Both the position numbers and the translations under genes were made by a program. Shown here piece after piece: positions 1,375 through 44,302 of a stretch of 49,000 nt of DNA. Under the pieces are notes generated by a model. That model ran no database searches, was not told the origin of the DNA, and saw only the letters and a list, made by a program, of their open reading frames with translations. How positions within the stretch are numbered: position 1 is the stretch's first letter; every line of letters begins with the position of its first letter. The DNA comes from an uncultured virus (IMG/VR IMGVR_UViG_3300005239_001603). Lineage: Duplodnaviria > Heunggongvirae > Uroviricota > Caudoviricetes. Where the stretch lies: the IMG/VR virus record IMGVR_UViG_3300005239_001603. One strand, written 5' to 3'.

Positions 1375-1380
1375 ATTTTA

Positions 1381-15767: not shown

Positions 15768-17297
15768 TTAGAATTCAATGACAACTTTAATGTCTTCAAT
15801 CTGGTCGTTTGCACGACTAATGGTTCTTCTATTATCTATGTAGATAACATCTCCACTATTAGATTCAATTTCGGGTTTAGCATAACCAGAAGTAAATCTC
15901 ATTCCCAAATCATATTCGGTGTTATTGATAACCCGAGAAGATGTATTAGGGACTGCAGGGAAGTTAACATCTGGATCTCCAGAAGCACCAGAAGATGCAC
16001 CTTGGATTGCATTTGATCCATCAAATTCATTCAATGAACCTGTAATGGAAGGAAAAATACCATCAACTCTATTTTGATAGTACTTCAGGACCTTTGTTGT
16101 TGTATTCCAAGATACAACTTTACCAGTTGCAGTAACTGATTGTCCACCAACAACACGAGTTTGGGTAATAGTTTCATCTGGAATAAAATTACCTTGGAAG
16201 GTTGTTGCGAAGATAACTGCTCTTGAAGCAGATAAGGTCAAATCCGAAAGAAGTTCAGTTGTTCCATACTTCTTAGGATTGGTAGTAAGACCAATACGAC
16301 GGTAATCGTTATCAACTGGGAAGTCACCTGCTCCTTCATCATATGAAAGTTTGGCGTTAATCATTACACGATATGCACCCATTTCAACAACGGGATTTTT
16401 ACCATGACCACCAGGAGGAGGAATGATAACATCAATCTGACCACCAGTTCCAGTACCGATACCAGAAATAGCGTCAACAGTAACCTTACCGAAAGAATAT
16501 CCAGTACCACCAGAAGTTACAGTAGATGAGATAACGCGACCGCCATCAACTACGATTGAAACTCGTCCACCAGTTCCATCACCGTTGATTGAAACATTAT
16601 CATAAGTACCGTTATTGTAACCAGAACCAGATGAAGTAATTACAACAGTATCAATCTCACCAGCAACTGAGTTAGAAGTAACTGATGCATCGCTGAATAC
16701 TGGCATGTAATCAGCAGAGAAGAACTTCAGAACCTGTGCAACAGAATAGTATACACATACTTCCACCTATAACCATCGGCAGTGGTGATAATTGAAGTAG
16801 AAGTACCAGTGGGCTCAATAGTAGAAGGCTACCGTTAGGGTCACTAGGAGAAGTGCCGTTATAGATGCACTTATAAACTTGGTAGTTGAGTTGACAACGT
16901 AGAAGTCAGAATCATACAACTTAGTTGCACCAGAAGATGCTGTATTAGTTGGGGAATAGTCATGACGATACATGTCATAAGTAAATCCCAAACCACCAGT
17001 GGTTTGTTCTGGAGGAATCCAGTCAATACGACGCACAACTTGAATCGTATCTGCAGCAAGCACTCGCTTCAATGACATCATGTCATCATAAGCATCAGAG
17101 AACTCGTCAAACGAGTCAACAGCCTGCGGCGGAGAGTTTTCGTTGTCCCATTCCTGGGGGCGACCGATGAACAGGTACAGACGATCTCTGTCGTCACCAG
17201 CAATAGTATCACTAGCCAAAGGGTCTGGACCCTCTAGAGATTTGATAAATTTTTGTGCTGTAAAGATCCTGAACTGGTCAGTTAGTAGAGCTGCCAT
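15768..17297 (-). CDS. gp8: Baseplate wedge subunit gp8 (~510 aa), split by three 1-nt deletions (~16890, ~16830, ~16745)
   Basis: N-terminus MAALLTDQFRIFTAQKFI...LYLFIGRPQEW, then YDMYRHDYS. The corrected middle reads YQVYKCIYNGTSPSDPNGKPSTIEPTG...DGYRWKY, and the C-terminus is SGDVIYIDNRRTISRANDQIEDIKVVIEF. 1530+3 nt gives 510 codons plus stop. Confidence 0.92.
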
Positions 17298-20691: not shown

Positions 20692-21126
20692 NNNNNNNNN
20701 NNNNNNNNNNNNNNNNNNNNNNNNNNNNNNNNNNNNNNNNNNNNNNNNNNNNNNNNNNNNNNNNNNNNNNNNNNNNNNNNNNNNNNNNNNNNNNNNNNNN
20801 NNNNNNNNNNNNNNNNNNNNNNNNNNNNNNNNNNNNNNNNNNNNNNNNNNNNNNNNNNNNNNNNNNNNNNNNNNNNNNNNNNNNNNNNNNNNNNNNNNNN
20901 NNNNNNNNNNNNNNNNNNNNNNNNNNNNNNNNNNNNNNNNNNNNNNNNNNNNNNNNNNNNNNNNNNNNNNNNNNNNNNNNNNNNNNNNNNNNNNNNNNNN
21001 NNNNNNNNNNNNNNNNNNNNNNNNNNNNNNNNNNNNNNNNNNNNNNNNNNNNNNNNNNNNNNNNNNNNNNNNNNNNNNNNNNNNNNNNNNNNNNNNNNNN
21101 NNNNNNNNNNNNNNNNNNNNNNNNNN
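20692..21126. other. Assembly gap (N run, 435 nt), probably hiding a gene boundary
   Basis: Run of N between the gp9/gp10-N-type sequence and the gp7-like sequence. Confidence 0.99.
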
Positions 21127-22082: not shown

Positions 22083-23838
22083 TTAACCAGCAGAGTTTCC
22101 GTCGCTTTCAATATACTGCCGAATTAGAGCTTCATGACCAGCATCAATGTCGTGACCAGTATTACTCTTAACATGAACTACAGAATTATTAAGGTATTTG
22201 TAGAGATATATGTTGGAGTAAGATGAATACTGTACACCTTGAGGATCTCCTAGTTGATCTCCAGTATAACCTTGAGATGTGGCAAGAAGATATGCACCAA
22301 ATTGCGAATCAAAGAACGTAGTACCAGCAACACCTCCCAATCCACCATTATAAGGAATAACCCCATCATTGGTATTTGCAATAGTCATAATATTTCTACC
22401 AGTTGGAGGAGTTATTGGTAGAGTATAACCATACCGCTCATTTGCAGATCCAGTAGATTCGTTGGTTGGGGGTCTATACCAAACAAAATTGTCCCATTGA
22501 TTAATGTGAAGAGCGGATACTACAGAAACTACTGTAGTTACACCAGCATCATTTAATTCTAAGAATGCCCTAAGTGCTAAAGCCGCACCATTAGATACAC
22601 CAAGAATTCGGAATTTATCACCAGCAACGTTACTATATTGCCTAAGATTTCTAATCAACTGAATTAGAAAATCTATATCAGGTGCTTTACTCTCATCAAC
22701 AATATTCCATGCATTACTATACCCAGTAGGTGCTACTAAAATATCTCCAGGAAGAACGCTCCTCCATCTATTTACAGTATTACTACCATTACCACCACTA
22801 CCATGTAACAAGATGGTTACAGGCAATTGTGAGGGCAGTGGGGGTTCACCTTCAGAGGGGTCTGCAGGCAGACTAACTACAGAATCATAATTAAAATTAG
22901 TTGCTTCGGACCAAGTTTTGGTAATTCTGAGAATATCAGTATTACTAAGAGGTGCTACAGGACCTCCTGTTGGACTATCAACGCCTTCCTCTGGCCAAGT
23001 TCTCTGTTCTTTAGTTGTAGGTCCAAAAATATATGGGTAGACTGGAAGATTATTTTCGTCTAGTGAAAGAAAATATGCATACGTTCCATTTGGATATTCT
23101 GGAGTTTGGCAAAATCTACCATTATGTTCATCCAAGTCTCCAAAACCATTTACATATTCATAGTCTTGAACAAAACTTCCTGCAGTATACTGCTGATAAC
23201 TATATTGCCTTCCATCTGCAGGTGTTGTTAAAATTCTGAAAGATGACTTTAATTTTTTTGTTCCACTCGTTCTATCCTCAACACTATCATATCCAAAAGG
23301 ACCATAAATTGGATATCCATCAAAACAAAATCCTACAATTTTTGAGTGTCCGTCTGGATGCCTAAAGAAATTACCTTTATGTTGAGTGGCACTATAATAT
23401 ACATTAGATTGTATTAAATCATTGCCCCAACAATTCACAAGAAAACTGCCAGAGCGATAGTGATACTCACCATTTTGCTCTGCATGTCCGCCACACGCAT
23501 CACACCATATACACTCTCATTAAATACGGCATTCCAATTAAACCCAGCAGCAGAAAACTGTCTGTCCAGGCAACGGACCAGGACCAGCAGAAGATTAAAT
23601 AAAACTACCCCATTTAATGCTACACCTTGAGCACCTAGAGTAGTTGCTTGAGGATTTTCAGTATTAGTTCCTGCCCTAATAGTAAATGCATATAATCCAT
23701 CTTGACTATCTACAGTATTGGGATTATTGGAAATTTCCAGATCCAAGTGGGGTCCCATACAAAGCAGGTCAGGGAGCTGATCAGTAGTAACTGTCAGCAC
23801 CCCGTTTCTAATACTGCTGTGGTATCAGATTGCGGCAT
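22083..23838 (-). CDS. YHYH-like domain fused to a C-terminal alpha/beta-hydrolase (LpqC/PHB-depolymerase-like serine esterase), ~585 aa; 5' part broken by several 1-nt deletions
   Basis: ATG at 23838 (MPQSDTTAV). ORFs 23435..23800 and 22083..23438 join after frameshift repair (GVALNGVVLFNP...YGVDACGGHAEQNGEYHYRSG...GHSKIVGFCFDGYPIYGPFG). The C-terminal ~280 aa has ILLHGSGG, LVAPTG...W, DIDF, GVSNG, NTNDGVIPY.GG and TGH. Confidence 0.82.
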
Positions 23839-23857: not shown

Positions 23858-23865
23858 TATTTATG
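23858..23865 (-). promoter_or_regulatory. Late promoter variant CATAAATA overlapping the stop codon of the giant gene
   Basis: Plus-strand tatttatg at 23858-23865, 20 nt upstream of the ATG at 23838. Confidence 0.62.
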
Positions 23866-26800
23866 ATCCACTCACCCAAACGTTGGATGTATCTGACGTT
23901 CGTGTAGTTGCAAAATCAGTTAGTGTAGTAGGAGTTTGGGTGGGGTCGGATGGACCTTGACCTGCGATGTCTCCACTATTGATATTGCTAAGATCTTCTG
24001 GTGCGATCTGCTGAATCTCAGGATCAATAATTTCCTGTGAGAAGAATGGTTCCTCTCCATATAGTGTAATATCTGGACTTGTCCAGTCATCGGGAAATGA
24101 TGTGAGAACATCAATTTCAGGATATCCATAACCAGAACCAGGATTGGTAGTGTCTACACGAGAGACACCCACCAGAGCTTTAATCTCTGCATCAAAACCA
24201 GAAGATGAATCAATCCGAACTGTTGGGCGAGCAGTATATCCAGAACCAGGATTAGTTACCTGAACTCCGTTAACTCTTCCCTTGAGAATGTTAGCAGTAC
24301 CTTGAGCGTCACGACCAAACACGGATCCGATATATTCAAATGTTACTAGAGTATTTGCAGATTCAATAACTGCAACCTCTCTATCTACATTTTCACCTTG
24401 AATTTGCAGTAAGTCTCCAGATTCAATTGGAGGTACAACCTCGGATCTTGTAACGTCTGCATCAGAACCAATGTAAGCAAATCCAACAAATGTGGATCCT
24501 ACACGAGGAATCTCTTTGAAAATGACACGAGAACCGACTAATTCAAAACCAACATCAGGTTCCTGAATAACACCATTGAGAGAGATAATAATATTATTAT
24601 CTGCGATAATAGATTCAGTCTCCTGAACACCTTCCGTAAGCGCGAGCGAGTAGAAAGTTCCATCCCGCTTGAGGTTAAAGGACGAACGCAAGGAGTCAAA
24701 CTCAAAGCTAATATCATCCAGTTGACGCATTTTACCAAGATAGAATCCAGTGAAGGAAGAACCCAGCGTAGGTGCTTCATTGAACAAGATAGTATCAGAG
24801 AATGCGGTATAAGATCCAGCAGCACCAGGAGGTTGTAGGATACCATTGACAAAGATCATCATATGACCTTCGGCATCTGGGAAGTATGGAGTACCATTAT
24901 TCTCAGTCAGTTTGAATGATGTTTGCGTACCATCAAATCCTACAAAGTATCTGCTAGTTCTACCTTGAATATCAATCTTCTCATATGCTGCTGCTATATA
25001 TCCAGCGTCAGAGACCACCGTATCATTGCCACTAAAGGTGCCAACAACATCTGCGAGATATACACGTCTACTTAGACCAATTTGATCAATACGAGTGATT
25101 GTTCCATACGCTACAGTAGTCTGATTAACAGTCGTGGAAACTTGCCCGAAGATTCTAGGAGTCTGAGTATTGCCTAACGGATACTGCGCTACGTTTTGAC
25201 CATTCTGGAAGACAGAAGTGCCAATCGGAGAGACATATAGGTAGTTGTTAGCATCATCCCATCCAGTAACATATCCATATGCACCTTGGAAGATTTGAGA
25301 TAGATTTGAGTTTGCTTGATATACAAGATCACCAACAACGAAATCTGAAGATGCAAAACTACCAGCCAAGGAAATACCCAACCTAGTATATCCAGTAGCA
25401 ACAATGTTATCACCAACATCAATGCCAGTTGGAATACCAGGATGAACAATCAAGTCCAAGAATATTCTCGTCTGATCTGGATAAATTACTGAGGTATCTT
25501 CAAAAGTACCTTCAAGAGACTCAGTGTCAAGAGTTAGTCTTCCTCCAGTATTGTTGGTAACAGCACCTCTGTTACTGATATAGTTTAAGGTATCTGCTTT
25601 AGATCCTGAAGTATATCCTTTGAATGGATATCCAGCAGTAAATCCAATACCATTGACCAAATCAATAACCTGAAGTCTATCAGTAGAAACTTGAATACCC
25701 GCGTTAGTTAAAGTATCAACTTCTAAAGTAATATTATTACCTCCACCATTACCCATACTGACATCTTGGAGTGTTAGCACATCTCCGACTTGGTAACTAG
25801 TACCACCAGCATCAATGATAACGTTTGCTGCTCCAGTATCATCAACGGAAACCGTAAATGATGCGCCGCTTCCATTACCACCAATAGAAGATACTGTATA
25901 AGAACCTTGTACTCTGTTGACATCTGCACCCGCGTTAGTCAAATTAATGAATGAACCAACTAAGTCAGTACCACCCTCAAGATTTGTTCCTGCAGCTGCA
26001 CCAGTCAAACCATCATAGAGACTGAAAGTTCCTCCAGTAACAACAACATCCATGTATCTGAAGTTCTCATCTGCATACAGAGAATAAATTGTTCCCGTAT
26101 TTGCAGCATTTCCAGTAGTCTGAACTGTCTCACCCAGAGCAAAGTCTGCAAGAGCAGTACCAAGATTTACTTGATCTGCATTAAACTTAAATCTCTTATA
26201 AATGGCCGCGACAGTAGACTCATTAAAGGTAATTTTCTCAATTTCACCTTGAGTGTTAGATGATAGTCCGTAGAAGAAATCTGCACTATCAAGTTTTTTG
26301 GTTAGAGAAACTGGGACATTTCTAGAGTTACCCTGAACATATGTTTGATTTGGAACAGTGATTCCAGAAATCTTAGGTACTGTGAGCCAGTATTCACTGT
26401 CTTTCAGTTGCTCCCTATAGAGATTAAAGGTATTACTGAATCTCAACATCGTGGAGGCAGTAGTATAATTTTCAGTTAGTTGAAGATCATAATTTGGAAT
26501 GGTTCCCGATTCCAAAGCAGGGTTGACTTGAGTATTATTGAGTTGAAGTTCAATCAAATCTTCTGTCTTATCAATCATGAATTTCTTGATGTTATATTCA
26601 TCACTGACATACAGTCCTTCACCACTAACAGAGGTATAGATATCCAGACCTCCTTTATTGAGTTTAGCACCCCAAATATAAGAACCTGAAGTACCATCAC
26701 CCTCCGAACCAGTACCAGCTAAAGTACCACTGTTGTTCAACATATATTCTTTGATATCTAACTGAGAGATACCAAAGGGAACTTGGATAGTGATGAATGG

Positions 26801-29800
26801 GCGGAACCAACCAAATCCATAAGGTTTGACACCCCAATCAATACCTTTCCTTGCTTCCGAGTCAGCAAAACTGGTGGAACTCGTTATGTTGTCACCAACA
26901 ATAACGTTACCATTAACAAACAGTGAAGGTCCAACAGCACCAGTTACAGCATCCCAAGTAAATTCTGCCTTATCGGTAGCACTCCAGGCAATACTATGAC
27001 GGAACTTAAAGAACTCATCTTGCTTAACGAAACAAGACCAGGTGTAAGTTTGGAAGGAGATGTTAGCACCTTCGTCAAGAGTATTAGTAGTGTCGTCAAA
27101 GGTGATTGAATCATCATCAAAAGTATCAAATGAAGGTAGAGAATAAGTTCTTTCTATAACCTTAGCAGTAGTATTATTTCCAGGAATATACTTGTCTGCA
27201 GTATTAGTCTTATCGGGAGCTATAGTCTGATCAGCAACTACAGTACCACCAGTTACAGTCCAACCGCCAGCACCAAACTCTTCTCTTTCACCAGCAGGCC
27301 AAATATTGACTGCAGAAGTTTCATTTTCTACAGGCGAATCTATAAAGATTAAACTATCAATAGTTGATGTATTGTTAAATTTGCTTTGTGCAACAGGACC
27401 TTGAATGGCGTCAGATGTAGCTGAAATAAATTGATGTGTATAATTACCACCAGCAATTACAGCATTAGCAGTAGCACTAATGAATGTGTGAGCTTCTCCT
27501 GCTGCAGATCCTGCATTTCCAACATTTAGCGTGATAGTTCCGTCTTGATGATCTAAAGCATTATCAAGGGCGTATTTGAAGATATGGACAGAAGTATTTG
27601 AAGAAACACCAACATTAACATCAAACTGATCATCAGTAACATTAGATACCGTCAACCACTTGTAGCTGAAAGGATCCGAAGAACGAGGATATGCATGCTC
27701 GGTTACATCATTATCTAAACCACAAGTAAATACGATAGACTCATCTTCTATTCTGATCTTATCTCCATTAACGAAGGAATTGCCAACTACAGTGAGTGTA
27801 AGAACTCCAGTACTAGGAACATATACAGCATCATCAATATCAAATGAATCAGTACCAACAGCATCTATATTGATTGTAGTTCCTGCATAAGGATCGGATC
27901 CAGAACGAGGATATGTCTCGTTAGAAACATTACCATCAGAGGTACAAGTAAATGTGAGAGAATTATCTGCAAGTCGGATTGAAGTGTTCTCAAACAAATC
28001 ATGATTGCCGATATTGAGTACTAATACACCATTTCCAGCATCATATGTTGTGCCAGCTCCGACATTGTAATTGACGGTAGGTGATGCTCCAACGTTTACT
28101 GTTATGGTATCAGTAGTTACTGCAGTAATTGCAAGTTTTTCTTTGTATGCTGGATCAGTTTGTCTTGGATACTTATTGTAACTATTGTAGTTATCAGAAG
28201 AGCATGTAAATGTCAGAGAATTTGGTGTGATGAAAATGCCATCACTGGTAGTAAGACCATGATCGGAACTAGTAATAACAAGGTCACCACTAGTAGGATC
28301 GTATGTAGCATTTTCTACCTCGTATGGAGCAGAAACTACATCTGGAGTAGTGATGTTATCATAAAGTGCATCCTGCACAAACTGATCCAACCAATAATCC
28401 TTACCAAATTCAACGAATGTCCAATTGACACCTACAGGATTCGCATTGTTATTTACATCACTTTCATCTGGAGTAGCATCAATAACAGTTCCACTCAAGT
28501 GTGTAGGTGCTATAGAACCAGAGGTTTCTGTATTCTGTGCTTGATAGAGATATGGACCGCTACTAATAATGGATCCTGCAACGTATGCTCTATCAGTGAC
28601 CCATTGTCCAGTAGAAGTTTTCCATACATCACCCCAATCTCCAAGAACAATTTGTCTAAGTTCGGTATCAATATATTCTCTACCGAACATAACCTGCTGA
28701 TTAGAAGAACGAGCAGATTCACTTCCAGGAGCAAGGATCTCAATAATTGTAGAAATTAGAGTATCAATAGCAGATCTTACATTAGTACAGTCTCTAGATC
28801 CATAGTTGTTCGTATCTCCATCATCGGTGCTATCAGTAATAGTACCATCAGTATATGCACTTTCTAATGTAAATCTAGGAACATAGAATTCAAATCCAAG
28901 TGATCCATCACCAGTATTCTGTAGGAGGTTGTTTACCGCCTTCTTACAAAGGAAACCTACACGCTCAATTGCCTCTACAGTAGGTGCAATCTGATCTTCA
29001 ACGTGATTAATCTTATTATTAGAATCAAGATATAGTTTTGCTGCTTCAACAGTACTATAGTTGCCACCAACTAACAAGTCAGAAACAATAGACTTGACAA
29101 TTTCCTCCATATCACGAACACATTTTGCTTTTCCGTCAATGTCACCACCAGGATAGTCAAACGTCTTAATTGTGATACCACCAGAGTTGACATAACTAAA
29201 CTCTTCTTGCATTAGACCAACTGCTTCTTCAGCAATATAAGTCTGGTTAAAGATCAAAAGATCTCCAGCATCACGGAACCTATCTCCCGTAGGAGCAAGA
29301 GTTTCATTAATCAGATCTGCCAAAGTATCAATAGCAGACTTAACATCAGCACATCCACCAGGATCATTAGTGATTCCTGCAGGAGGAATTACAACACGAT
29401 CGGAGTAATTTGCGACTAAAGTTCCGTCAATTGCTGCCTTAGCATAGAATGCTAGGCGTTCATGAGCGTAAAGCGACTGCAAGAGTTGTAGACGGATGAA
29501 TAGAATCTCACCCTCTGCTCCTAAGTAGAACTTGAATGCAGTTACTGTATTACCTGATCCACCAAATTCAATATCATCTGCGATAGAATTAAGTAACAGA
29601 GTAAGGTCAGTTTTGCATCTTAGGGTTCCTAGAGTAGAAGCACCATTAGCATTTCTTGGCATATCCAAAGCGAGTTCTGGATAGCGAGCTAGCATATCTC
29701 CTGCAGTTTCATCAACGATAGTTCCAGCGTTAGCACGGATCAAAGTAGCAGCATCTTTAAATCTATTCTGAGAATCGGGCCAAAGTTGAGTTGATACAAA

Positions 29801-32800
29801 CAGATCAGAATCTGCAAATTCTTTATCGCAAGTAAATTCAGATACAATAGCAGAGTCAACTACTCCAGATCCATGTAAACTAGTTGGAGCAACCCGAGTT
29901 ACAGTACCAAGATGATCTACGGGACTAGCAAGATTTGCCTGCTCAATAGTATCTGAAATAATATCAGCATAAATCGTGATTGCCGAAGCGACGTTGGCAC
30001 AGTATGGAGAAGACGAGTCTCTAGTGATAGTTGCATCTACAACTTGTGTTAGACCATGATCACCAGTAATAGTAAGAAGATCGCCACGCATTACTGAGAT
30101 TGCAAAGTCGCGAACCTTATCAACTGCCCATACTGTCTCACCCTCTTCACCAGCAACATGATTGATTACTACATTTGAAGGATCAGTACGATCAACATAA
30201 TTGGCCGCGGCATCCCATGACTTACTGTTTCCAGTATTTCTCAAGTCATAGGCGATAGAGTCAACCCAAAGACCAGCATCTCTCAGGCAATATGCATAGG
30301 AAGGATGAGTTCTATCTAAAGTAGCGGTAGAACTTGGATATGTTACTGCATCAGATCCACCTGGATCGGATAGTGTATCGGTAACAATTTTAGTGAGAGC
30401 AGTAATTCTGTCCTCGGCAGCAGTATAACCTTCGTAGATGAATGGAATGTTAGTATTTTCTGTTTGAGTAAGACCGTGAGATCCTGTAATAGTAACTGTT
30501 GTATTATTAATGATATCCTTAGCAATATCTCTTGCCTTATTGAATACACTAATAGAAGCAGCAGTTACACCTGTCAGGTGTTGAATTGCTNNNNNNNNNN
30601 NNNNNNNNNNNNNNNNNNNNNNNNNNNNNNNNNNNNNNNNNNNNNNNNNNNNNNNNNNNNNNNNNNNNNNNNNNNNNNNNNNNNNNNNNNNNNNNNNNNN
30701 NNNNNNNNNNNNNNNNNNNNNNNNNNNNNNNNNNNNNNNNNNNNNNNNNNNNNNNNNNNNNNNNNNNNNNNNNNNNNNNNNNNNNNNNNNNNNNNNNNNN
30801 NNNNNNNNNNNNNNNNNNNNNNNNNNNNNNNNNNNNNNNNNNNNNNNNNNNNNNNNNNNNNNNNNNNNNNNNNNNNNNNNNNNNNNNNNNNNNNNNNNNN
30901 NNNNNNNNNNNNNNNNNNNNNNNNNNNNNNNNNNNNNNNNNNNNNNNNNNNNNNNNNNNNNNNNNNNNNNNNNNNNNNNNNNNNNNNNNNNNNNNNNNNN
31001 NNNNNNNNNNNNNNNNNNNNNNNNNNNNNNNNNNNNNNNNNNNNNNTCCTTGGAACATCCCAGTTGCAGGAGTGTATGTGGTGGTATACCTTGCAGTGCT
31101 AGAAATTCTGATTTCATCCATATACCCAGCAAACGCATTTGCATTTGCATAATCAGCACCAATCTTAATTGGTTTTGCTATATGGGTATTGGAGTCCGAA
31201 CCGTTAGCTACTTGAGCACCATCAATAAACATCTTGATAGTGTTACTTGATCTGGTAATCGCAATACTAGTCCAAGTGTCCTGAGCAATAGTTCCTGCAG
31301 CAAGAAGATCACTTCCGTTAATATTATACCGAAGTTGACCATTTTGCAAATATAGTCTAACTGCAACTTCTGAGGCAGAAGCAGCACGGAAGTCCAAAAG
31401 TGTAGCAGTTCCAGTTAAAGCAGATGCACTAGCATAAATTTGTGCCTCAATACTAAAGTCATTAGTTGAGAATGCAAAATCACTATTGCTAGGGATGTCA
31501 ACGTAAGCAGTTCCATTCAGGTACAACGAACCTGCTCCAAATTTCTTCTGAAGAGAAGAGACAATCGCGCCATTTCCTGCAATTGGTACATGAAGATCAG
31601 TTGCACGTCTAGCAACCTTACCTAAGTACAAATACCCACGAGCATAGTTAGTACCAATGACTTCAGCAGTAGCATTCTCACTACGAATACGATCACCAGA
31701 AAGTATCAATCCATCAGGAGCATAATATGCTGGATTGTATGCCAATTTATAAACCCTTACAGTCTCACCGTCAACCAGGTCACCGTTAAGATTAGAGTAG
31801 TTTATAATATTATTTCTAAGTTGTTCTTCAATAGTAAAGTCGCTTGTCGCATTTTCATACTCAAGAACCAAATTACTTACTACTTCCGAATTTGGGAATT
31901 TTGTATTAAATTCAACTGCAGAATCATTAATGTCAGTCAACTGCAACTGAGTTTGAGAAATATTATCCAGAACAACGTTTTGGAAATCAACACTCGTGAT
32001 TCTATTGAATACGATACCGAAGAAAGATGATCCTTCGGAGATAATAACTTGATTATTTGCAGCTCCAGTTACAGGGTCTCTATATGACTGAATACCAGTG
32101 ATCTCAGCAACAATTCCACTTTGCTGTCCAATGATAATATCACCAATGACAATATCAAAGACGCCAGGAGACGATTGATACGTGCCAGCAGTTTTACTCA
32201 GTACAACTTTGTTTCCAACTTCAATAGTAGTACCAAAAACATTACTGTTAGTTTGGTGTCCGACTACAGCTGTACCATCAGCACCCCTATTTGCGACTAC
32301 TGTGTTTCCAGTAATACTTACAACGGAGAATCTTTCAGAATCAATTTGATAAACACCACCAACATCAGCTACAATCGTGAGAGTTGCATCATTATTACCA
32401 GCAGCAAGTGTTACAACTTCTCCGATATTATAACCAGATCCGAAATTCTTAATTTTGACTGATGCAACAGTACCATCACCATTAGCATCAACTTCAATAG
32501 TCAATCCAGTTCCACTACCACCTGTAGTAGCAATTCCGTCAATATCATCAGAATATCCAGAACCAACACTTGCGATAGAAACATCAGACAACTTATATCC
32601 ATCAGCAACATCAAATGTGGTGCCAGTGGCAGATAGACCATTAGGAATAGTTGACAGAACTATACCATTATTACCTTCAAGGTTTACTTCTTCAATAGTA
32701 GCAGTATCATTTCTTAAGTTTTCAATCTCTTCTTTGAATTGGAAGAGATTTTGAGGAGTAATATCTGTAATAGTCGCTAAATCACCTGAGAATCCAGTAG

Positions 32801-35800
32801 CACCAGAGAAAATGTTTTCTCCAATTGTAAAGGCGTCTCCACTATATTCATAATAGAAATCAATTGTTGTAGTTCCTACAGCAACAACAGTTGCATTGAT
32901 GTCAGACACAACTCCTCTAATGCTACCACCAATCAGTGGGAAAATGCCACTAATATTGGTAAGGTCCATTCTATAGATAGTTTTGAAACCTAATGTAGCA
33001 GTAGCATACTGAACATTAGCGGGAGGTTGTGGTGGTGAAGCAAATACTACATTAGAACCCTGTACTGTAAATGCTTCTTCTGGAGACTGTACAATACCAT
33101 TAAGAGTAATAATCAGTTGATTTGCAGCTGCAATAACTGGTTCAGTTACTGGATTTCCATCCCCATCTCTATTTTCTACTTCAAGTGGGAATGAAATTCT
33201 TTCACCATCAAATAGTTGAGAAATATCATTAATTTTCTGTACCGTGGAAGTTAGAATCTGCTCAGAAGAAGTTAGATTCTTTTGGCGGAAACGAACCTCA
33301 GTATTATCAAAGTCAGTATAAACTGGTTCAACTAGAGTGAAATTCTGAAGATTCGGAACGATAGCAGATTCTGCCAAGTTTACCGACTTAGTAAGTTCAA
33401 AACTAGTAGTCTTATTTTCAATAGTACCACTCTCAACTAGACCAAGTTCTCCAAAGACTTTAAATCCGCCAGGGTGAACATTAGTAGTAAGAATTTCTCT
33501 CCAATCAGAAATAGGTACAGGTGCTTGAACACTGTATGAGAAATCCTGATAGAAGTAAGAATCTTGAATCTTCTGAATAATTTCTGAAGGTTTGCCAATA
33601 TCATCAATAAATCTACCAGGAGTTGAAGTAATGGCACCAACTTCCAGAACACCTCTAGCGATGCTTAGGTTATCAATAGTACCAGATGCCTTAGAGATTG
33701 TACCAGTAAGTCTTTCCTGACTAGTAAAGGTTCCAGTGTAATCTACAATTTTAAGGATTCTCGGACCTTCTTGCCAACCATCATTATTGGACACATATCC
33801 AAATGCAGTTGCTTGCTCCTGAGTTTCTCCTTGATATACATATTCGCCTGCAAGGAAACGACCAGTGATTACATTGGCAGAAGCAGCACCACCGAACGAG
33901 TCGGTAAGCAGTTGTTGGCGTCCATCACCAGCATTAGTAAAGGAAATGAAATCACCGATAGCAGCATTGTCTGCAGTAAGGGAAAGTCTCAATTGGTCAT
34001 CTTCAAGAGAATTACCAATACCCGAAATAGCATAGTATGTCGTTGCGGTATTCAATCTACCGAAAGATGAGATTGGAAGTGCTGGATCAACACCAGATCC
34101 ATCATCATTTACGTTAACAGTAACAGCAGCACCGTTAGTAATACCATGAGGGAAAGAGAACTGAAGTAAGTTCAGGTCAAGGTTTACAACATAGTTGAAC
34201 TGTGATTTGAGTGAAACTGTGGGCTGTGAAGAATATCCTGCTCCAGGATCTTTAACTTCAATTTGATCAATACGACCGTTTCTGATAGTTGCTTCAGCAG
34301 TAGCTCCGTTTCCGCCGCCGCCAGCAATTTCTACTGCTGGAGGTGTTGCATATCCAGAACCAGGATCGGTAACAGTGATGCTATCCAGAATACTGGTACT
34401 AGTCAACTGAACGTTAACTGGGAAAGTGATCTCAGGACGTAGAGTATAGTCATGAGTATAATCAAAACCAAAGTTATTATTCTTAAGTTTTTTAATTTTT
34501 CCAATTTCGTCTGCCTTAACAAAGACAGATGCTCCATTACCATTGGGTGGAATAACAACCTTTAAGTCTGCACCAGATCCAGCAAGACTAGATCCAAGGA
34601 TTCCTGCAATAGATTCAATATCAATGAATGCTGTGGTGTATGCTTTACCAGGATCAGTAACAACAATTCTGCTAATTTGACCTGGGATAACTCCCCCTTC
34701 ATCATCAGTACCATCTTCTACAGTAATATTGACTTTTCCTCCTTCACCATCACCACTAATACTAACACCAGTATATTCACCTACAGCATATTCAGTTCCA
34801 GGTTCAGTAATCTCAACTCTTTCAATTTTACGATTTGAAATGATATCGGAGACAACTGGTAACTTAGTATAGAATCCACCACCACTAATGAGACGAATCT
34901 CACCAATTGGACCAGCAGCTGCCTTAGAATAGGTAGCATATGTAGTTCTGGATGCAGTAGCAGTACTTTCAGTTTCATTTAGAAGAGGGAACTTGAAGAT
35001 AGTAGCCCCAGTAGTAATAGTAGCACCATCTAAACGATTGAGAACGAAGTTACCCTTATATGGAGATGTTACTACATCCAAGTAAGTTCCTTGATCTACA
35101 GGAGAAGTATCTCCAACTCTAGATGGATCAAAGTAATATGAAATGTTAGTAACATCATTTGCAACTGACAACTGAACATATGGTTCAGGATCAGATCCAG
35201 CTTGAATTCCAGGTGTGCCAACTCTCTGAATAGAGTTGAAGGAATACTCTAGTTTGAATAGATTATCTTTTGAGAATGAGAAGAAATACCCTTCCAGTGA
35301 AGGGTCGCCCATCATAAATTGATACTTATGATTGTAGAACAACTGAAGCACAGGATGCTTCGTAAAGATCTCAATACTAGATGCAGTTGATAGCGCAGCA
35401 GTTGCAATACTTCTCAACGTAATTGCATATTCTCTAGAAGAAATTAACTGGGATACTGAGAATGATCCATTGAACTGAGCATCAGAATTTCCAGTAATGA
35501 AAAGATTATCTCCTAAGTTTAGTCTATGAGCCTTTTCAGTCTTAACAAATACTCTATCGGTATTATTGACGGCAGTAATCTGAAGAATCTTGTCCAGGTT
35601 GGTGACCAGAGTAACTTCAGTAACAGCAGTCAATCCACTAATTGTTAACTGAGATCTATCTGCATTATAAGTAACCTGATCTTCTGTTGGTGTGATTACA
35701 CTACCGATAATATATGGAGATCCTGCAGGTGCAGTATTATCAATTCTTATACTAAAATCTTCTTGTGCATAAGTTTTGAATCTTGCATCTGTTCCAACTG

Positions 35801-38800
35801 GAATGTCAAAGATAAATGTACCTTGTGTTGTTGTAAATGGTACATTTGGAAATATTGATGAAGCAATTGTATTTGATTCTAGTCCACTAGAAGTAATTTC
35901 TCCACTGCCAGCAAATCCTTGCCAGGTGCTTTCGTTACCATACTGAGCAATGAAGATACCAGAATCGGTAATATCAATAATTGTACCAAGTCCCAGAGTT
36001 TGTCCTGCTGAATTAATCTGAGTTAATACAGACCCAACGTTAAGATTGTAAGTTTGATTTAAAGTAAGTCTTAAAACATTATCTGCTTGAACAGTATTGG
36101 TAACCTTAATATAAAACTTACCAAAAGTTGTGGTAGTTGCTTTTACCTTTTTACCACCAAGAGCAGGAACAGTTGCAGTTCTTGAAGACCAAACATCAGC
36201 AACAGAAGTAAGAGTTACACTATCAAGAACAAGTGAAGAGTTTACATCATTATAATCTAGAACTTGAAGACCTTCAGAAGCAAGAGTAACCGCTGCAGAT
36301 GTAACTGGTTGATTGATAGTAGATGGATATGTATATGATGCAGTAGTAAAGTGGAAATTACTATTAGTTCCAACAAACGTACCCTGACGAGAAAGATCAA
36401 TATTCTTGTCAGTTTTTAAAATGATTGAAGTATCTTCGGTGTAATGATATGTCTTATAGTACTCATTATATTCAGATGAAACCGAAGGTACAGAAATAGT
36501 TCTGACTCTATCAGTAATTCTCAGACCATCAACATCAAAAGATCCTGCAGATTCAATAGTAAATCCACTAGCAGCACCAGTCCAATTAGGAACATTACCC
36601 AGATAAATTTTAGCAGTACTTGGGATAGTTAATGCTGGAAGTGAACCACTACCAACAGATGTTCCATCAGCATAAATGGTGAACAAGTTTCCATTTTTGG
36701 TTACAGCAATATGAACATATCCAGCATCATTAGCAATAATTCCACCTACAGTAGTAATTGGTGATGCAGTTCTAGTTGTAGTAGCAGAAACAAAGAGTTT
36801 CAGTGCCTTATTGGAACGATCTAACTGAAGAGCAAGACCTGGAGTATTTCCATCACCGATTGCCAGTAATGTATGATGAGTTGATCCAAGTCCACCAAGT
36901 CTACTGTCTTGAAGTACAGTAGTCTCAGTTACGCCAAACCAACCTTCAATAGTCCAATTATTATTAGGATTAAAGGTATCGGCATATCCATAAATTCCAG
37001 TATTATTTTCTGGATTGATTACAAAGTGAGTATCTGACCAAGCAGATCCATCATGAGCATCAATCCTGAGAGCACGGGTGCTTCCTACTCCAGTAGGTGC
37101 TCCACTAGCAATATTAGAACCTGTATAGTAGTCACCAATAATATTTCTATTGGTAATGTTACCAGTAGTATCAACAGGTTCTGTTTCTGTAGTTGCTTCA
37201 AAATCAAATAGAGCAACAACTTCGTTGCGATATCCTTGTCCGACTACAATTGGATCACCAGAACTGTCTGAGGAAATATCATTGACTTCAAAACCGACAA
37301 TATTACGATCCAAACTGATCTTATTGCATTTAACTACACTACCATCATATTTGAACTTAACAACCTCACTCTGCTTTCTAAATGCTTCTGAAGTTGATGT
37401 AGATTCATTAATCTCATAGTTTATTGCAATATTATAATTACCAAATACATCAACATTGCCACCGATAACTTGAAGATTTCTGAAAGTTCCCAATGGAGTA
37501 ATTCTCTTACCCCAAGTAACAGTTCCTGCAGGAGTTACTTTACCAACAAAAACTCCAATAGGATTAGATCCAGAATAAGAAGTACCTGCGATTAAGAAAT
37601 CTCCAAATTCATCTAAATCAAATCTAGCATCCCAAAGATTGTAACTAGTAGTAGTAAAGTTTTGAACACCATCTATAACTAGAGCAAACTGTGTCGCTTC
37701 ACACGTTACAATTGCGGCAGACTTTACTGCGCTAGTAGTATCGGGAGCAATTTCTAAAAGAACGTAGAATTTGTTATTATCTGGATTGTATACAATATCT
37801 CTAACTTTCTCGGAATCGCTTGCAGTAGCAACTTTTCTTTTCTGCTGAATACCTAAGTTTTCGTTAAAGATAATTAAGAATGCATCAAAAGGATTACTGG
37901 AGTTTGTATTAGTATGACCACCAATGGCCCACTTATTTTCTCCAACTTTACAGATTGCTTGAACTTCATCCAAACGAGTAGAACCAGAAATACCAGCAAG
38001 TTCTTTTTGGAATTGAATATTAACACTAGAACCAGAACTATTCTGATTAAACTTCATCAATACAATATCAGGATTGTAATTGACGTTTAGTGCATTGGGT
38101 TTAGTTGTACCAGTAACATATACATCCAAAGAAAGACTTGTTTCGTCTACTGTGATTGCTTTAAAATCACAGAATGTATCCGCTCCACTAGGTTGTTCAG
38201 ATCTAGCAGTTTTTTGCCAGATGATATCTCCAGATGGTGAGTACTTAGCAACAAAACCGACTCTGTTGTTAAATTCATCTAAACTATTACCACAGACATA
38301 AATTTCTTTAGTTATGTCGCTGGTATAGGTAGAATTGATTACAGTATTGTTTAGATTTTGAGTACCATTAATAAAATATTCAGATTTCTTAAATTCTTGT
38401 GGATGTGAAATAATCAATCTTGGATTTTCGGTAAATCCATTACCAGATTTTTCAATATTAAAAGTAGAAACAGTACCATTGCTGACATTGATTATAGGTT
38501 TGATATCAGCATGTTGTCCATCACCATCAATTTCAACAGTGATAGGAACATCATCATTATAACCAGTACCAGTTTGAGTTACTACAATTCTCTCAACACC
38601 ATTTACGACTTTGACCTTATACTGTCTATTTTCATTAGAAATATTAGGATCATAGAGCATTTCAACTCTATCACCAACTGACAGTTCATGTGGTCCGTCA
38701 GTTTGAACTACTCCATGAGGAACATCATCAATAAGTTCTGTGGTATAAGAAGAAACATCTTTACCTTGAATAGTTTTGATAGTTGCCGATATTCCATAAC

Positions 38801-41800
38801 CGCCAGTCTCAGTATCATCAAATACTAATCTATCATCAACCTGATAACTATCGCCAGGGTTTTCTACTACAAATGCATTTACTTTAGCATCTTCAAACTT
38901 GGTAATAGTTTCAACTTCAATGTCAACTTTAGAATCAAATCTAACTTTAGGGAAGTAATCAAACAATTCAAGTTTATTTTCTTCCAGTAAAGAACCAACA
39001 TCATTCAGTTCTTCAGTTACATTATCCTCAAGTTCCGTAGTTGCTCTAAATCCAACAAACTCAATATCGGTGATATTTGCACTACCTTGCGATACACCAT
39101 CGCTATCGGTGTAAGTAAAGTCCAATCCAATATATTGATCGTAAGTCTTATCAAAAGCTGGAATGAATTTTTCTACCGATACAATACGTCCAAGTACAGT
39201 ACTATTGGTAATTCCATTTTGCAATACTTGGAAATTTAAAATACCAGTAGATGCTGCATATTGACTATCAGTAGTAACGTATGCTGGAATAGTGTAGGTT
39301 TGACCTACTGCCATAGTAATTGTATTTTGATCAAACGTTAAACGGAATACTCTATCATCATTTCTAGTTGCAAGACGTACTAAAGGAGTTATAGGATTTC
39401 CATCGTCATCGGTTTGATAATTGGTATCAATTACATTATCTCCATCAGCATCTTCCCAAATAGGTTCAAATGTAAGTTCTAATCCATCTTCGGTGGTTAA
39501 AAGGTCCGCAGTAGCATTAGGTTGACGTTCAACATCAATATCAACATTTTCGTAAGGGTCACGATAACGGATAACACCAACAGGAATATTTTGCTGAGTT
39601 GCAGATGCTAAAAGGTTCCAACTATCAACACTAGAATTGAACTGTGGTCCAATAATGTATGGATATACAGAATTTCCTTCTGCAGTTGCGTCAATGCAAA
39701 TAAAGTAAGAATAGACACCATCAGGGAACTCAGGAGTCTTGCCAAAACGACCATTGTAGCGGTCTAAGTCACCTTCTCCGAAGGTATACTCATAATCTTC
39801 TACAAAGGTGCCTGCAGCATCACCTGAGAGCAAAGGACCACCAGTTCTAATTGGATTTGGATTGGTCTGTGCATCAAGAACCAATTCAGACCTCAATTGG
39901 TAACTTGGTTCTAAACGACGGACATTTGAACTTTGATTAGTTGGGTCACCATATCCGTAAGGACCATAAATTGGGTTACCATCAAATGCCCATCCAATGA
40001 TTGGAGAGTGAGTAATGTTTGCTGTGGCTTCAGTTAAATTCCCATTAGAATCCTCAAGAAGATTATCTCCAAGAACAAATCTCAGTCTCTTGGGATTGGT
40101 AAAGTGTGCATACTCACCACCATACTGGTTATTAAATCCAGAAAATACAGAACCTTGAGCATTATCAAGAGTAGTATTAAATGCAAGATTATAATTCCAA
40201 TCTTGAACAGTTGCTTGGAATTCTGCATTGGATCCTACAGAACGTAAGATAATTACAGTAGTACCAGATTCATAGTTAATACCTCTATTGGAAATTGAGA
40301 TACTTGTAACACGTCCAGCGTTCTCCCCATCAGTATCAATATTTGCTCTAGCAATAGCACCAAAACCATTACCATAAATTTCTACTTCTGGAGGAGTTGT
40401 ATATCCAAAACCAGCGTTAATAACAGCAATAGAGATGATACGACCATTTTGTACAATTGCTTGTGCTTGAGCACCAGAACCAGAACTTAACGTTACTGTA
40501 GGTTCTGAGGTATATCCAGTTCCTGTATTAGTCAGATTGACAGCAGAAATAGGTCCTCTAACTGATGCCGTTGCAGTAGCACCTGATCCACCACCACCAA
40601 CAATGGTGATTTCAGGTTTGGAAATATAACCAGTACCACCATCAGTGATAAGAATTCTAGATACTACACTATTGGTAACAACAGCAGTTGCTGATGCTCC
40701 AGAACCACCACCACCAACAATGGATACTAGAGGAGGTTCAGCATAGTTAGTACCAGTATTATCAACATCAATACTGGTAATAGAACCATTAATAACTACT
40801 ACTCCAGCAGCATCATCTCCATCCCCACCAGAAATAGTGAGAGCTGGTGGAGAAGCAGCATCATATGAATCACCCTGAGAGGTAATATTGATTGCTGTAA
40901 GTTTTCCGAAGATTTTTTTCAGATCAGACTTATAAGACCAGATAGATACTCCATTTACCCAAGATCCAATTGGACCAGGTTTGATTGTATCTTTTGTTGA
41001 AATTGTTTGAGATCTTCTAGGGAATCTCAATAGTTTACGCTGATTACCAGGAATTAGTGCTTGTCCTGCGAAAGGACCAATCTTATAATTGGGTATACCA
41101 GAAGCAGCAATGTAAACATAATTATCATTGAAAAATGCATTCTGAATATTTGTAGTGTAAATGCTAATAACATTATTAATAGATTCAATATCAGACTTAC
41201 CCCTGTTAAGGTCAACCGAAATTAGAATATTTCCTTGAGGAACAGTAGCAGCAGGTTGAACTAACTCATATTTAAATACAGTCGTAGACTCTCTAGATTG
41301 TACAAAATACGTGCCATTAAAGAGAATTGGGTTTGCGCCATAAATGGTTACTTGGTCTCCAACCAAAAGACCGTGTGGGTTGTTGCAATATACAGTAGCA
41401 GTTCTATTATTAACGCCACCAAACTCAATACGATCAACAGAAACAAGTTTCTTTACATTATAATTCCAAGTGTTTAGTAGTGGAGTAGTTTCAGATGCGC
41501 CTAACTTAGAGACGGTTAGTTTATCTCCAGGAAGATAATAAGTACCATCATCAGTCAGTGTGGTATTTTCCGCTTTAATAATACCGACAACGTTGACTGT
41601 TACTTGTGTTGGCAGTCCATAGTTGACATATGCATAAAAATTGGAAGTAACTTCCGTAGCTGCATCCCAATCTTCAACAATATTATTTACTGAACGAGTA
41701 CACTCAATAAACTGGTTAAGTGATTTCTCCTTATAGCGGATAANNNNNNNNNNNNNNNNNNNNNNNNNNNNNNNNNNNNNNNNNNNNNNNNNNNNNNNNN

Positions 41801-44302
41801 NNNNNNNNNNNNNNNNNNNNNNNNNNNNNNNNNNNNNNNNNNNNNNNNNNNNNNNNNNNNNNNNNNNNNNNNNNNNNNNNNNNNNNNNNNNNNNNNNNNN
41901 NNNNNNNNNNNNNNNNNNNNNNNNNNNNNNNNNNNNNNNNNNNNNNNNNNNNNNNNNNNNNNNNNNNNNNNNNNNNNNNNNNNNNNNNNNNNNNNNNNNN
42001 NNNNNNNNNNNNNNNNNNNNNNNNNNNNNNNNNNNNNNNNNNNNNNNNNNNNNNNNNNNNNNNNNNNNNNNTGCCGCAGATGGTTTAATGATCTGCTCTT
42101 TTGGATAATTACACTAACATCTTCACCATACAGAATTTTAAAGAGATACTGAATGGATCTTTGAGTACCTTTTGATGCATAGAAGGTACGAATATTTTTT
42201 ATGACCGTATTGATATTAATCTTCTTAAGGTCAATTTTTGGAATGTCTGGAAGATACTGCTCAGTAAATTTAGTGAGCATTTTTTCAATGAATACCCCAT
42301 CAAGACACTCAACTTCAGTAGTAAGTGCGGAATGTGCTGCAGGAACAGTATTATCTTCATATATTACGTTACCATCACTATCATATCCAACAATAGCCGA
42401 GACACCACGAGAGCATCCAACGAATTGTGCTTTGGTATACTCAGATCCATTTTCAACTACACGGAATCCAGTCACTTCACCGAATCCAACTTCCGCAGAA
42501 GCGTTGGCAGAAGGGGGTCTTTGAATAACAACTCTGGGTGGATTTGCGGGATCGTATCCAGTACCAAAATTCGTGATATTCAAATCCGTAATTTGTCCGT
42601 TAAAGATGGATGCTACCGCAGTAGCACCAACTCCACCAATATATGCTCCAGAAGCATCCTTTCTGTTATCTACAATATAGATGGACGGAATGTCAACATA
42701 TCCAGAGCCACCAGATAGCAATTCAATATCAATTACCCTACCAGTACTATCAACAGAAACATCAAGAATCTGAGCAGCACCAGGATCAATTACAGCAACC
42801 CTAGGGGATGCAGTATACCCTCTTCCACGATTAGTGATCGTATAACCTGTTACAGTGCCGTCTGCGATAGTTACATTGATCTCTGCTTGTACTGGATCTG
42901 AACCAGTTGGAGCATCAACGTATACTGATGGGGGAACAGTATATCCAACACCACCAGAAGTAATTTGAATTGAGTCCGAATTCAAAGATCCATTGACATC
43001 AACTGTTGGATATGTAAGTACGCATCCACCAGGATCTTTAAATGTAATTCTAGGTGTGAATGTAAAATTACTTCCAGAGTCGTCAAGAGTAACTGAAGTA
43101 ACAGTTCCGTTTTCAACTATAGCGGTAGCTTTAGCCCTAATTCCACCAGCTGCGGTGGGAACTTCAATATCTACAATAGGAGGGTTCAAATCACTGTATC
43201 CCGCCCCACCACTCAAAAGAGGTAAAGTTTTGATTCCATTGACTAGAGAGTATGCAGCTGCTCCGCCACCACCTACGGTAGTTACAATATTAACTGCTGG
43301 TGGATACTGAATCCTATAGTTAGAACCACCAGATTTTACACGAATTCCGCTAAGTTCTCCATTTGTTGCAATTTGTGCTACAGCAGAAGCTCCACTACCA
43401 AAACTACTGATAGGTGCCTCAATAGAAGCGATATATATTCCCTGATCTGGAGTAGGGGCAGATGTAAGTTTTAGGATATTATTAATTCCATCACTTACAA
43501 TAGTAAAATCAACAAAAGGAACTAGAAGCTTATCCCCAATGATGATATTAAGATATACATCAAGAACTGGGTTATACTTTACTCCATTAGTCTGAATTAA
43601 AAATTCTTTCTTTGCAGAATTAAACTGACTAGAAACATCATCTAATACTTGAATCGCATCTTGAAGAAAACCTTTCAGGTAAAAAATACCAGTCTGTTCA
43701 ACAGAATCTGATGGGTTTGGCGATCTTGGAGGATCGGTGAAGATAATATCAGTACCAGAAATTATAAAATCAACATTAGGGACCTGATACTTGCCAAACA
43801 ACCTTACGACAACATGATCTGGTGAGGGTGCAGAAACAGGATTATTTTCCGAACGTAGTGGGAAAGACCTTTGTACACCATTAAAGTTTAAATATGGACT
43901 TTGAAGTTCAATCCATTTTTCGCGAAATTCTTGATAAGAAACTCCATCAGTTAGAGAAATTTCTGGTGATTTATCTGCTCTTTCATAGTAAACAATTTCA
44001 TCATTGATTAAAAGACTTCCGTTGTCTTGAAGGAAGTTATCTACACTTTCAACCGTGATAATATCAGATGTTGCGCTAACATCTTCAAGTAATGAAGTTT
44101 TACTCTGGATCAGTCCAAAGTCATAACTGTCAATATCTAAGTAAGACTTGAGTTCGTTGAGAATATTTTGAGGTTGACCTGTTTTCTCTTGAGACTTATA
44201 GTAATATTCTAAAAACTTCTCAAATGCAGGAAAATCTGATTTTATAAAATCAGGAAGTTGATTCAGAATATTCTGAGAGACCTTATTTGGGTTAGTCGTC
44301 AT
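23861..44302 (-). CDS. Giant multidomain virion/baseplate structural protein (~6,800 aa), spanning two N gaps and a frameshift near 42110
   Basis: ORFs 41687..44302, 30549..41366 and 23861..31162 form one gene. N-terminus MTTNPNKVSQNILNQLPDFIKSDFPAFEKFLEYYY..QE, then IKNIRTFYASKGT..SI.YLFKILYGE. The shifted frame gives YPKEQIIKPSA, and the frame stays open through 41743..41367 (IRYKEKSLNQFIECTRS...). It also contains KIQDSYFYQDFSY...VHPGGFKVFG. It follows gp6, like cyanophage giant wedge proteins. Confidence 0.82.
27400..28325 (-). repeat. Three copies of a beta-rich module (Y...G.L......H.....I......L.FTC..D.....YPR..DP) in the giant protein
   Basis: YDPTSGDL..SLTFTCSSDN..YPRQTDP; YDAGNGVL..SLTFTCTSDG..YPRSGSDP; YVPSTGVL..SIVFTCGLDN..YPRSSDP. 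Confidence 0.85.
28730..30590 (-). repeat. Tandem ~150-190-aa alpha-helical repeats with CxRD and C-x-[DN]-V-x-S-A-I motifs (phycobiliprotein-like)
   Basis: Three copies carry YCLRD/RCKTD/KCVRD...D[LI]..[GT]G[NS] and PYCANVASAI/GGCADVKSAI/RDCTNVRSAI. A fourth, partial copy runs into the gap at 30591. Confidence 0.75.
30591..31046. other. Assembly gap (N run, 456 nt)
   Basis: Run of N inside the giant gene. The flanking frames differ. Confidence 0.99.
41744..42071. other. Assembly gap (N run, 328 nt)
   Basis: Run of N inside the giant gene. Confidence 0.99.

Follow-up and report, generated by a model that had tools for sequence, protein, structure and literature searches.

The stretch of DNA analyzed here (the window) comprises 49,000 nucleotides of an uncultured virus of the Caudoviricetes (IMG/VR record IMGVR_UViG_3300005239_001603) and carries a giant virion structural gene. 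Within this gene, on the minus strand at 28658-30590 and abutting a run of N, lies an island of four mutually homologous tandem units of approximately 165 to 215 residues each (Table 1), all of which are detected by a hidden Markov model (HMM) made from the window's own units. The initial annotation of this DNA had read the island as modules of the phycobiliprotein fold with a Cys84-type bilin attachment motif inside a virion protein. Sequence profiles, two structure models, PHROG labels with synteny, and C-x-R-D motifs over 431 copies support that reading. Based on the profiles and the AlphaFold models, we are almost certain that the four tandem domains are homologous to the family of phycobiliproteins and bilin-binding globins and share its fold.

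Table 1. Positions of the giant gene, the four units of the island, and related features. Positions are those of the window unless an accession is given.
Feature	Position	Strand	Remarks
Giant virion/baseplate structural gene	23861..44302	-	~6,800 residues; ATG at 44302, stop at 23861; three visible pieces match phrog_701
Unit 0	30350..30590	-	C-terminal half only visible (helices G-H); N-terminal half and Cys (C-I-D-D) inside the N run
Unit 1 (copy 1 of the initial annotation)	29855..30349	-	Short form from about helix E; C-L-R-D, Cys 30287-30289 (TGC); second Cys 29999-30001
Unit 2 (copy 2 of the initial annotation)	29282..29809	-	Full-length; C-K-T-D, Cys 29615-29617 (TGC); second Cys 29351-29353 within PPAGITNDPGGC
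Unit 3 (copy 3 of the initial annotation)	28658..29302	-	Full-length, long G-H loop; C-V-R-D, Cys 29120-29122 (TGT); second Cys 28787-28789
PAAR-motif PHROG match	47249-47674		141-residue ORF directly upstream of the baseplate wedge genes
cpeT and giant fiber gene, S-PM2	NC_006820 163952-177267		
cpeT and giant fiber gene, S-RSM4	NC_013085 162121-177038		
cpeT and giant fiber gene, S-CAM1	NC_020837 62808-75478		
cpeT and giant fiber gene, S-WAM2	NC_031935 17190-33280		

Two N runs in the window (30591-31046 and 41744-42071) break the giant gene into three visible pieces, which match positions 2-725, 971-3766, and 5134-6136 of the 6136-position profile of phrog_701 ("virion structural protein"). 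On the minus strand, the frame that runs from 30589 to 23861 holds 2,242 open codons, and the translation of 23861-30589 contains all the peptide strings quoted in the initial annotation, with the three cysteine codons exactly where that annotation had placed them. The further partial copy that it had seen running into the gap is also real. An IMG/VR contig (L002), 100% identical over the query, crosses 30591-31046 as a single continuous open reading frame (ORF) and makes the hidden part visible; the N run is 8 nucleotides shorter than the real sequence, so its flanks lie in different frames in the window. The complete unit 0 corresponds to residues 965-1132 of L002 (alignment row L002:2893-3396), and the hmmsearch match in the window covers residues 1-98 of P0001. 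The match of unit 1 begins at position 38 of the approximately 188 positions of the model. Short forms that match only from about position 40 to 50, without helices A and B and with C-x-R-D kept, are seen in the window (unit 1) and in phages S-PM2, S-RSM4, and S-WAM2, and many units are of this type. In units 1 to 3, a second cysteine stands directly before the last helix.

The closest named relative is Synechococcus phage ACG-2014d (Kyanoviridae), with 92.4% amino acid identity over the island. Its orthologue is a single coding sequence (CDS) of 6,817 residues, annotated as virion structural protein, with four domain matches at approximately residues 4500 to 5200, and the neighbors of that gene are annotated gp9 and gp8. 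Upstream of the giant gene in the window are a PAAR-like gene, a 139-residue baseplate wedge gene (phrog_261), and a gp6-sized wedge gene (phrog_219); downstream are further baseplate wedge PHROGs and neck genes. Judging from size and gene order, we read phrog_261 as the gp25 counterpart and phrog_219 as the gp6 counterpart. Because wedge PHROGs flank it on both sides, the giant gene lies within the baseplate cluster in the place of T4 gp7, and by gene order and PHROG labels it holds the position of a gp7-type baseplate wedge protein, after the gp25- and gp6-like genes. The PHROG matches and synteny place the domains in a baseplate-cluster virion gene of a T4-like cyanophage.

Taken as a whole, the 630-residue island matches PF00502 with an E value of 5e-4 (20.5 bits, just under the cut-off of 22.2). 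Among single units, none reaches E ≤ 10 against PF00502, and unit 3 gave only stray COQ9 and PSMdelta matches. A phmmer search of the PDB with the island (E ≤ 10) returned only two phycocyanin beta chains and one phycoerythrin alpha chain (E 0.24 to 0.73), and all three alignments set the phage cysteine on Cys82/84. Two profiles extend these results, one built on 15 aligned units of marine relatives (A1) and one on 103 diverse units (A2). Against the PDB, A1 matches 175 distinct sequences at E ≤ 1 (best E value, 1.7e-8), and 60 of the 60 matches listed are phycobiliproteins. A2 gives 94 matches (best E value, 5e-6), all of them phycobiliproteins or the phycobiliprotein-derived smURFP among the matches listed, and several phycoerythrin beta alignments cover profile positions 13-125. 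With profiles, the similarity to phycobiliproteins proposed in the initial annotation is far beyond chance.

Comparisons between families agree with this to differing degrees. When the 103 units are searched singly with Pfam, PF00502 is the sole family matched, by 12 units at E ≤ 0.01. An hhalign comparison of A1 with CpcB gives 94.9% probability (E value of 4.2e-8 over 68 columns) and lays C-x-R-D onto C82-L-R84-D85; for the broad profile A2 the result is weak, with merely 35% probability (E value of 4e-4, helices E to G). The CpcB alignment used in both cases consists of 35 cpcB genes from public genomes and is narrow (number of effective sequences, 1.9), which limits this test. In the protein database, 20 of 40 giant homologues bear a precomputed PF00502 label. 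A search for stand-alone relatives among proteins of 81 to 398 residues yielded 17 matches, mostly on short contigs resembling fragments of giant genes, and none of the 17 has a PF00502 label. The ESM Atlas returned only unnamed Myxococcota and Acidobacteriota clusters (score 0.89 to 0.90, low recognition), and BFVD only giant proteins of cyanophages or uncultured phages, none named as a phycobiliprotein.

Structure prediction leads to the same family. AlphaFold2 models made without templates for units 2 and 3 both contain six main helices and show the globin-like fold with helices A, B, E, F, G, and H. The best PDB match of both is phycoerythrin beta (5aqd_M). The unit 2 model (m60f13407f953; predicted local distance difference test score, 83.5; predicted template modeling score, 0.82) matches it with Z 16.6 and a root mean square deviation of 2.9 Å, pairing model residues 10-172 with chain residues 28-184. 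For the unit 3 model (m06488f291318; 78.4 and 0.80 on the same two scores), the values are Z 15.1 and 2.8 Å, and model residues 4-191 pair with chain residues 30-184. Each comparison includes 151 aligned residues. When unit 2 is compared with 48,161 chains, phycoerythrin beta is followed by allophycocyanins, the bilin domain of ApcE, and phycoerythrin alpha; photocobilins, RsbR, and heme globin sensors rank after the phycobiliproteins (Z 9 to 12), and the order is the same for unit 3. The top 8 structural rows all belong to the phycobiliprotein family. In Foldseek, 36 of the 36 chains listed for unit 2 (down to rank 48) are of the phycobiliprotein type, nearly all beta subunits, with query-normalised TM-scores of 0.54 to 0.72. 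The fold proposed in the initial annotation was thus recovered, the best matches being phycobiliproteins and not an unrelated helical bundle.

The X and Y helices of phycobiliproteins are absent from the phage domains, because the structural alignments begin at approximately residue 28 to 30 of the beta subunit; sequence alignments begin at residue 32 to 39, and successive units adjoin without space for additional helices. These alignment starts and the spacing of the units uphold the earlier view that the domains lack X and Y helices and are strung together in one virion chain. Given this absence and the fusion to a virion protein, a phycobilisome-type assembly into trimers and hexamers with linkers is unlikely.

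The attachment triad is exceptionally conserved. The unit HMM gave 767 domain matches spread over 60 loci, the richest of which has 28; 50 further IMG/VR loci were reached via two long-array relatives (P0013 and P0023). Among the 431 unique copies that cover at least 60% of the model, the cysteine equivalent to Cys84 is kept in 418, the Arg in 413 (96%), the Asp in 428 (99%), and the full C-x-R-D in 405, and the mean column identity across A2 is merely 21%. An Asn in helix A/B and a GG after helix E are kept as well. An intradomain disulfide was considered as a reason for the conserved cysteine and is rejected family-wide, because 312 of the 403 jumbo-phage copies, which lie outside the marine group, hold exactly one cysteine. 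The second cysteine is limited to the marine cyanomyovirus group, where it occurs in 21 of 28 copies (0 of 403 elsewhere).

In cultured phages, only cyanophages carry the domain. A tblastn search of 50,697 phage records with the island gave 363 matches, of which 285 belong to Synechococcus phages, 60 to records named "Cyanophage," and 18 to Prochlorococcus phages. A similar query with a jumbo-phage array matched 40 records, 39 from cyanophages and one a marine single-cell virus record. A2 finds 1,670 of 1.84 billion representative proteins at E ≤ 1e-3 (1,357 at E ≤ 1e-10), with a maximum of 41 matched stretches in one protein. The long arrays belong to uncultured T4-like jumbo phages with a Gp23-type capsid gene (L012-L061, G003-G035), most loci having 10 to 28 domain matches; two near-complete jumbo records are 328 and 332 kb in length. 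No psbA was found in the 39 uncultured records searched, both near-complete jumbo genomes included, and a cyanophage identity is thus unsupported by psbA.

What the domains do is a question of graded probability. That an attached bilin is the reason for the triad's conservation has about even odds. In its favor count the homology and fold, the near-constant triad, the link to cyanophages, the phage cpeT and bilin synthesis genes described below, and the precedent of globins that bind bilins without lyases. While the particle is assembled in the infected cyanobacterium, a bilin made by the host would then become thioether-linked to the cysteine equivalent to Cys82/84, either autocatalytically, as in some cellular globins discussed below, or via host S/U-type lyases; a cyanobacterial host cell could itself be the source of bilins as well as lyases. 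The neighboring Arg and Asp would keep the pigment in place, their role in phycobiliproteins, and the baseplate of one particle would bear a few tens of pigment molecules. Such pigments may make the baseplate or fiber apparatus light-responsive and contribute to light-dependent adsorption. Chromophorylated domains on the baseplate and tail fibers might serve as a photoreceptor of the virion through which light gates adsorption; we consider this further step doubtful.

Several observations weigh against pigment attachment, some of them in the window itself. The initial annotation had C-x-R-D kept in the phage copies, which is correct for units 1 and 3, but Thr replaces Arg in unit 2 and Asp replaces it in the gap copy (unit 0, seen in L002), so that the full motif is present in two of the four units. 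Unit 1 is without helices A and B, which in phycobiliproteins help to form the pocket. The second cysteine of the marine copies, just before helix H, is suggestive of position 153 of beta subunits; a comparison of PPAGITNDPGGC with DPAGITPGDC from the beta-Cys153 region gave a single, nonsignificant HMMER stretch (-2.1 bits) that hhalign did not recover. Classical phycobiliproteins usually need lyases, and in ACG-2014d, the closest complete genome (99% complete), no Fe_bilin_red, CpeT, or heme oxygenase was found. The window's island is thus not the cleanest example of the family, with two of four full triads and a lineage that is without phage bilin and lyase genes. Elsewhere, a jumbo genome (G007, 93% complete) has 18 domain matches in one locus (L018), and neither heme oxygenase nor bilin reductase was found in it; conversely, pelagiphage Mosig and phage P-SSM2 possess a bilin reductase and have no domain match. 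Given the absence of psbA from all 39 records, many of the uncultured carriers may infect nonphototrophs. The initial annotation had held that equally conserved and equally common CxRD repeats in phages of nonphotosynthetic hosts without bilin genes would count against its reading; this objection applies in part, as the largest arrays occur in uncultured jumbo phages without psbA.

The strongest alternative, which we regard as somewhat unlikely, is a structural or receptor-binding module free of pigment: an ancestral phycobiliprotein/globin domain would have been recruited to baseplate and fiber proteins as a rigid helical spacer or adhesin, and C-x-R-D would be kept for folding or for contacts between domains and not for a chromophore. 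Tandem arrays of up to approximately 41 matched stretches per protein resemble other fiber repeat modules, short forms without helices A and B exist, the Arg is degenerate in 13 of the 28 marine copies, carriers without psbA are common, and the gene content of ACG-2014d fits such a module too. In contrast, in the passages of PMC10151467 that deal with the motif in phycobiliproteins, its Arg and Asp are known for chromophore contacts only, and here they are retained almost throughout at approximately 20% identity. A lone cysteine, 97% conserved in a virion protein that ends up extracellular, is also hard to explain structurally.

A different ligand or a cross-link is distinctly unlikely: the cysteine might link one subunit to another through a disulfide or a different covalent bond, or the pocket might hold heme, noncovalent biliverdin, or a metal. 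Heme-binding globin sensors and RsbR (Z 10 to 12) and photocobilin-type globins (Z 11.7 and 10.7) are further matches of the fold, and the family has invariants of its own that are absent in phycobiliproteins, a Tyr (99%) and, 14 residues beyond the Cys, an Asp (98%). However, phycobiliproteins outrank all other globins in both sequence and structure, and there is no His among the nearly invariant columns, although no dedicated check for a heme-ligating His was made. A chance likeness of an unrelated helical bundle is extremely improbable, for even though each unit alone falls below the Pfam cut-off and helical folds readily give middling Z-scores, the A1 and A2 profiles find only phycobiliprotein-type chains among the matches listed, the Z-scores extend over 151 residues, and hhalign with A1 aligns the motif residue for residue.

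Some cyanophages attach to their hosts solely in the light, without a need for host photosynthesis, and this behavior provides a lead on what the domains may do. According to Liu et al. 2019 (PMC6628666), P-HM1 and P-HM2 fail to adsorb without light; the authors also state that S-PM2 adsorption is light-dependent and photosynthesis-independent (citing Jia et al. 2010), that P-SSM2 adsorbs in the dark, and that the podoviruses P-SSP7 and P-GSP1 both adsorb and replicate in the dark. A2 gives six domain matches in P-HM1, five in P-HM2, and 10 in S-PM2, and none in P-SSM2, P-SSP7, or P-GSP1. The domains are therefore present in three of three light-requiring phages and zero of three dark-adsorbing ones. 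However, P-HM1 and P-HM2 belong to a single species, and P-SSP7 and P-GSP1, being podoviruses, have no giant fiber genes; the pattern is a lead and not a test. A bilin-type domain in baseplate and fiber proteins would be a concrete candidate for the light sensor of cyanophage adsorption.

The distribution of pigment and lyase genes was compared in 14 cyanomyovirus genomes, a nonrandom choice that includes several close relatives. Domains occur in 13 of them (3 to 15 matches each), CpeT in 12 (the match in P-TIM40 is weak), and a bilin reductase in 8. All domain-bearing genomes except ACG-2014d have CpeT (12 of 13), and P-SSM2 is the only one of the 14 that is without both domains and CpeT, its reductase still being present. 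This co-occurrence is not significant (both, 12; domain only, 1; CpeT only, 0; neither, 1; one-sided Fisher P of ~0.14, calculated by hand). In S-PM2, S-RSM4, S-CAM1, and S-WAM2, which represent four genera, a giant "short tail fiber" gene with the domains is preceded on its own strand by cpeT, 1.0 to 1.5 kb upstream (Table 1). Because gene order is broadly conserved among these phages, the four adjacencies are not independent events.

A tight coupling of phage bilin genes with the domains was considered and is rejected: ACG-2014d, S-PM2, and G007 have domains but no reductase, and P-SSM2 and Mosig have a reductase but no domains. Of the 39 uncultured records, G005 and G012 (92% complete) are the 2 with overlapping heme oxygenase and bilin reductase genes, which lie far from the array, and the closest isolate homologue of this reductase is that of Mosig, at 40% identity. 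In G012, the overlapping heme oxygenase and Mosig-like reductase genes (L073, G012:C1:155000-172000, at 8225-11166) lie between ClpS and CsgF/CsgG curli-secretion homologues, neighbors that hint at a Gram-negative host.

Among the closest known systems are the beta subunits of phycobiliproteins (CpcB and CpeB; PF00502), the best structural matches, which share helices A-B-E-F-G-H and the helix E Cys-x-Arg-Asp (C82-x-R84-D85). The phage domains differ in having no X and Y helices, so that classical alpha-beta pairing is not expected, and in standing as four tandem copies (up to approximately 40 in relatives) in a virion protein, at an identity of approximately 15 to 20%. The ApcE (LCM) domain (4xxi_A; Z 14.0 and 12.9) is likewise a bilin-type domain within a large multidomain protein, and bilin attachment in ApcE is autocatalytic. 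However, ApcE has a single such domain and belongs to the phycobilisome, whereas the phage domains are tandem and belong to a baseplate protein.

Phycobiliproteins form part of a wider clade of bilin-binding globins, according to the text of Rockwell, Martin, and Lagarias 2023 (PMC10151467), which also describes bilin biosynthesis-associated globins (BBAGs), some of which bear CXRD and attach bilins to themselves without lyases. BBAGs and the phage domains are both relatives of phycobiliproteins that do not harvest light, and CXRD, present in some BBAGs, is found family-wide in the phage domains. BBAGs are stand-alone cellular proteins encoded beside heme oxygenase and pre-PcyA genes, in contrast to the phage domains, which are internal to a virion gene and, in the window's lineage, unlinked to bilin genes. 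Photocobilins and photoglobins share the globin fold and bilin binding (8j2w_B; the Z-scores are those given above), but score lower than phycobiliproteins; they are cellular and fused to B12 domains, and the account in PMC10151467 gives them a CXQD motif.

In the full-text literature, supplements being outside the scope of the search, no description of phycobiliprotein-like domains in phage virion proteins was found. Statements in a paper on phages with Shemin-pathway genes (PMC11480375) treat the benefit of phage hemO and pcyA/X as a matter of speculation and name BBAGs as a possible partner for phage-made bilins, and a passage in PMC3037559 treats the purpose of phage cpeT as unresolved. 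If the bilin reading is true, a phage-encoded phycobiliprotein-like substrate would explain both the orphan lyase CpeT and bilin synthesis by phages, including the hemO-pcyX cassettes of jumbo phages of nonphototrophs, and the photoreceptor reading would explain the light-dependent adsorption of cyanomyoviruses. The family of bilin-binding globins would extend into virus particles, and arrays of up to approximately 40 copies could be of interest as natural fluorescent scaffolds.

Some minor features of the sequences deserve mention. The window contains five N runs (9591-10139, 15086-15719, 20692-21126, 30591-31046, and 41744-42071), each inside a giant structural ORF. Three genes of the baseplate cluster are possibly split into adjacent or overlapping ORF pairs: 44321-46230 (phrog_219, 310 and 326 residues), 22083-23800 (phrog_2576, 121 and 451 residues; the neighbor in ACG-2014d is a single CDS of 588 residues), and 15768-17297 (phrog_438, 160 and 332 residues). 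These pairs could be frameshifts, assembly errors, or real splits. In S-PM2 (NC_006820, 168556-173383; L072), 16 RefSeq tRNA features, all with the locus tag S-PM2t009, are located inside the 3,779-residue "short tail fiber" CDS, a placement that looks like an annotation coordinate problem.

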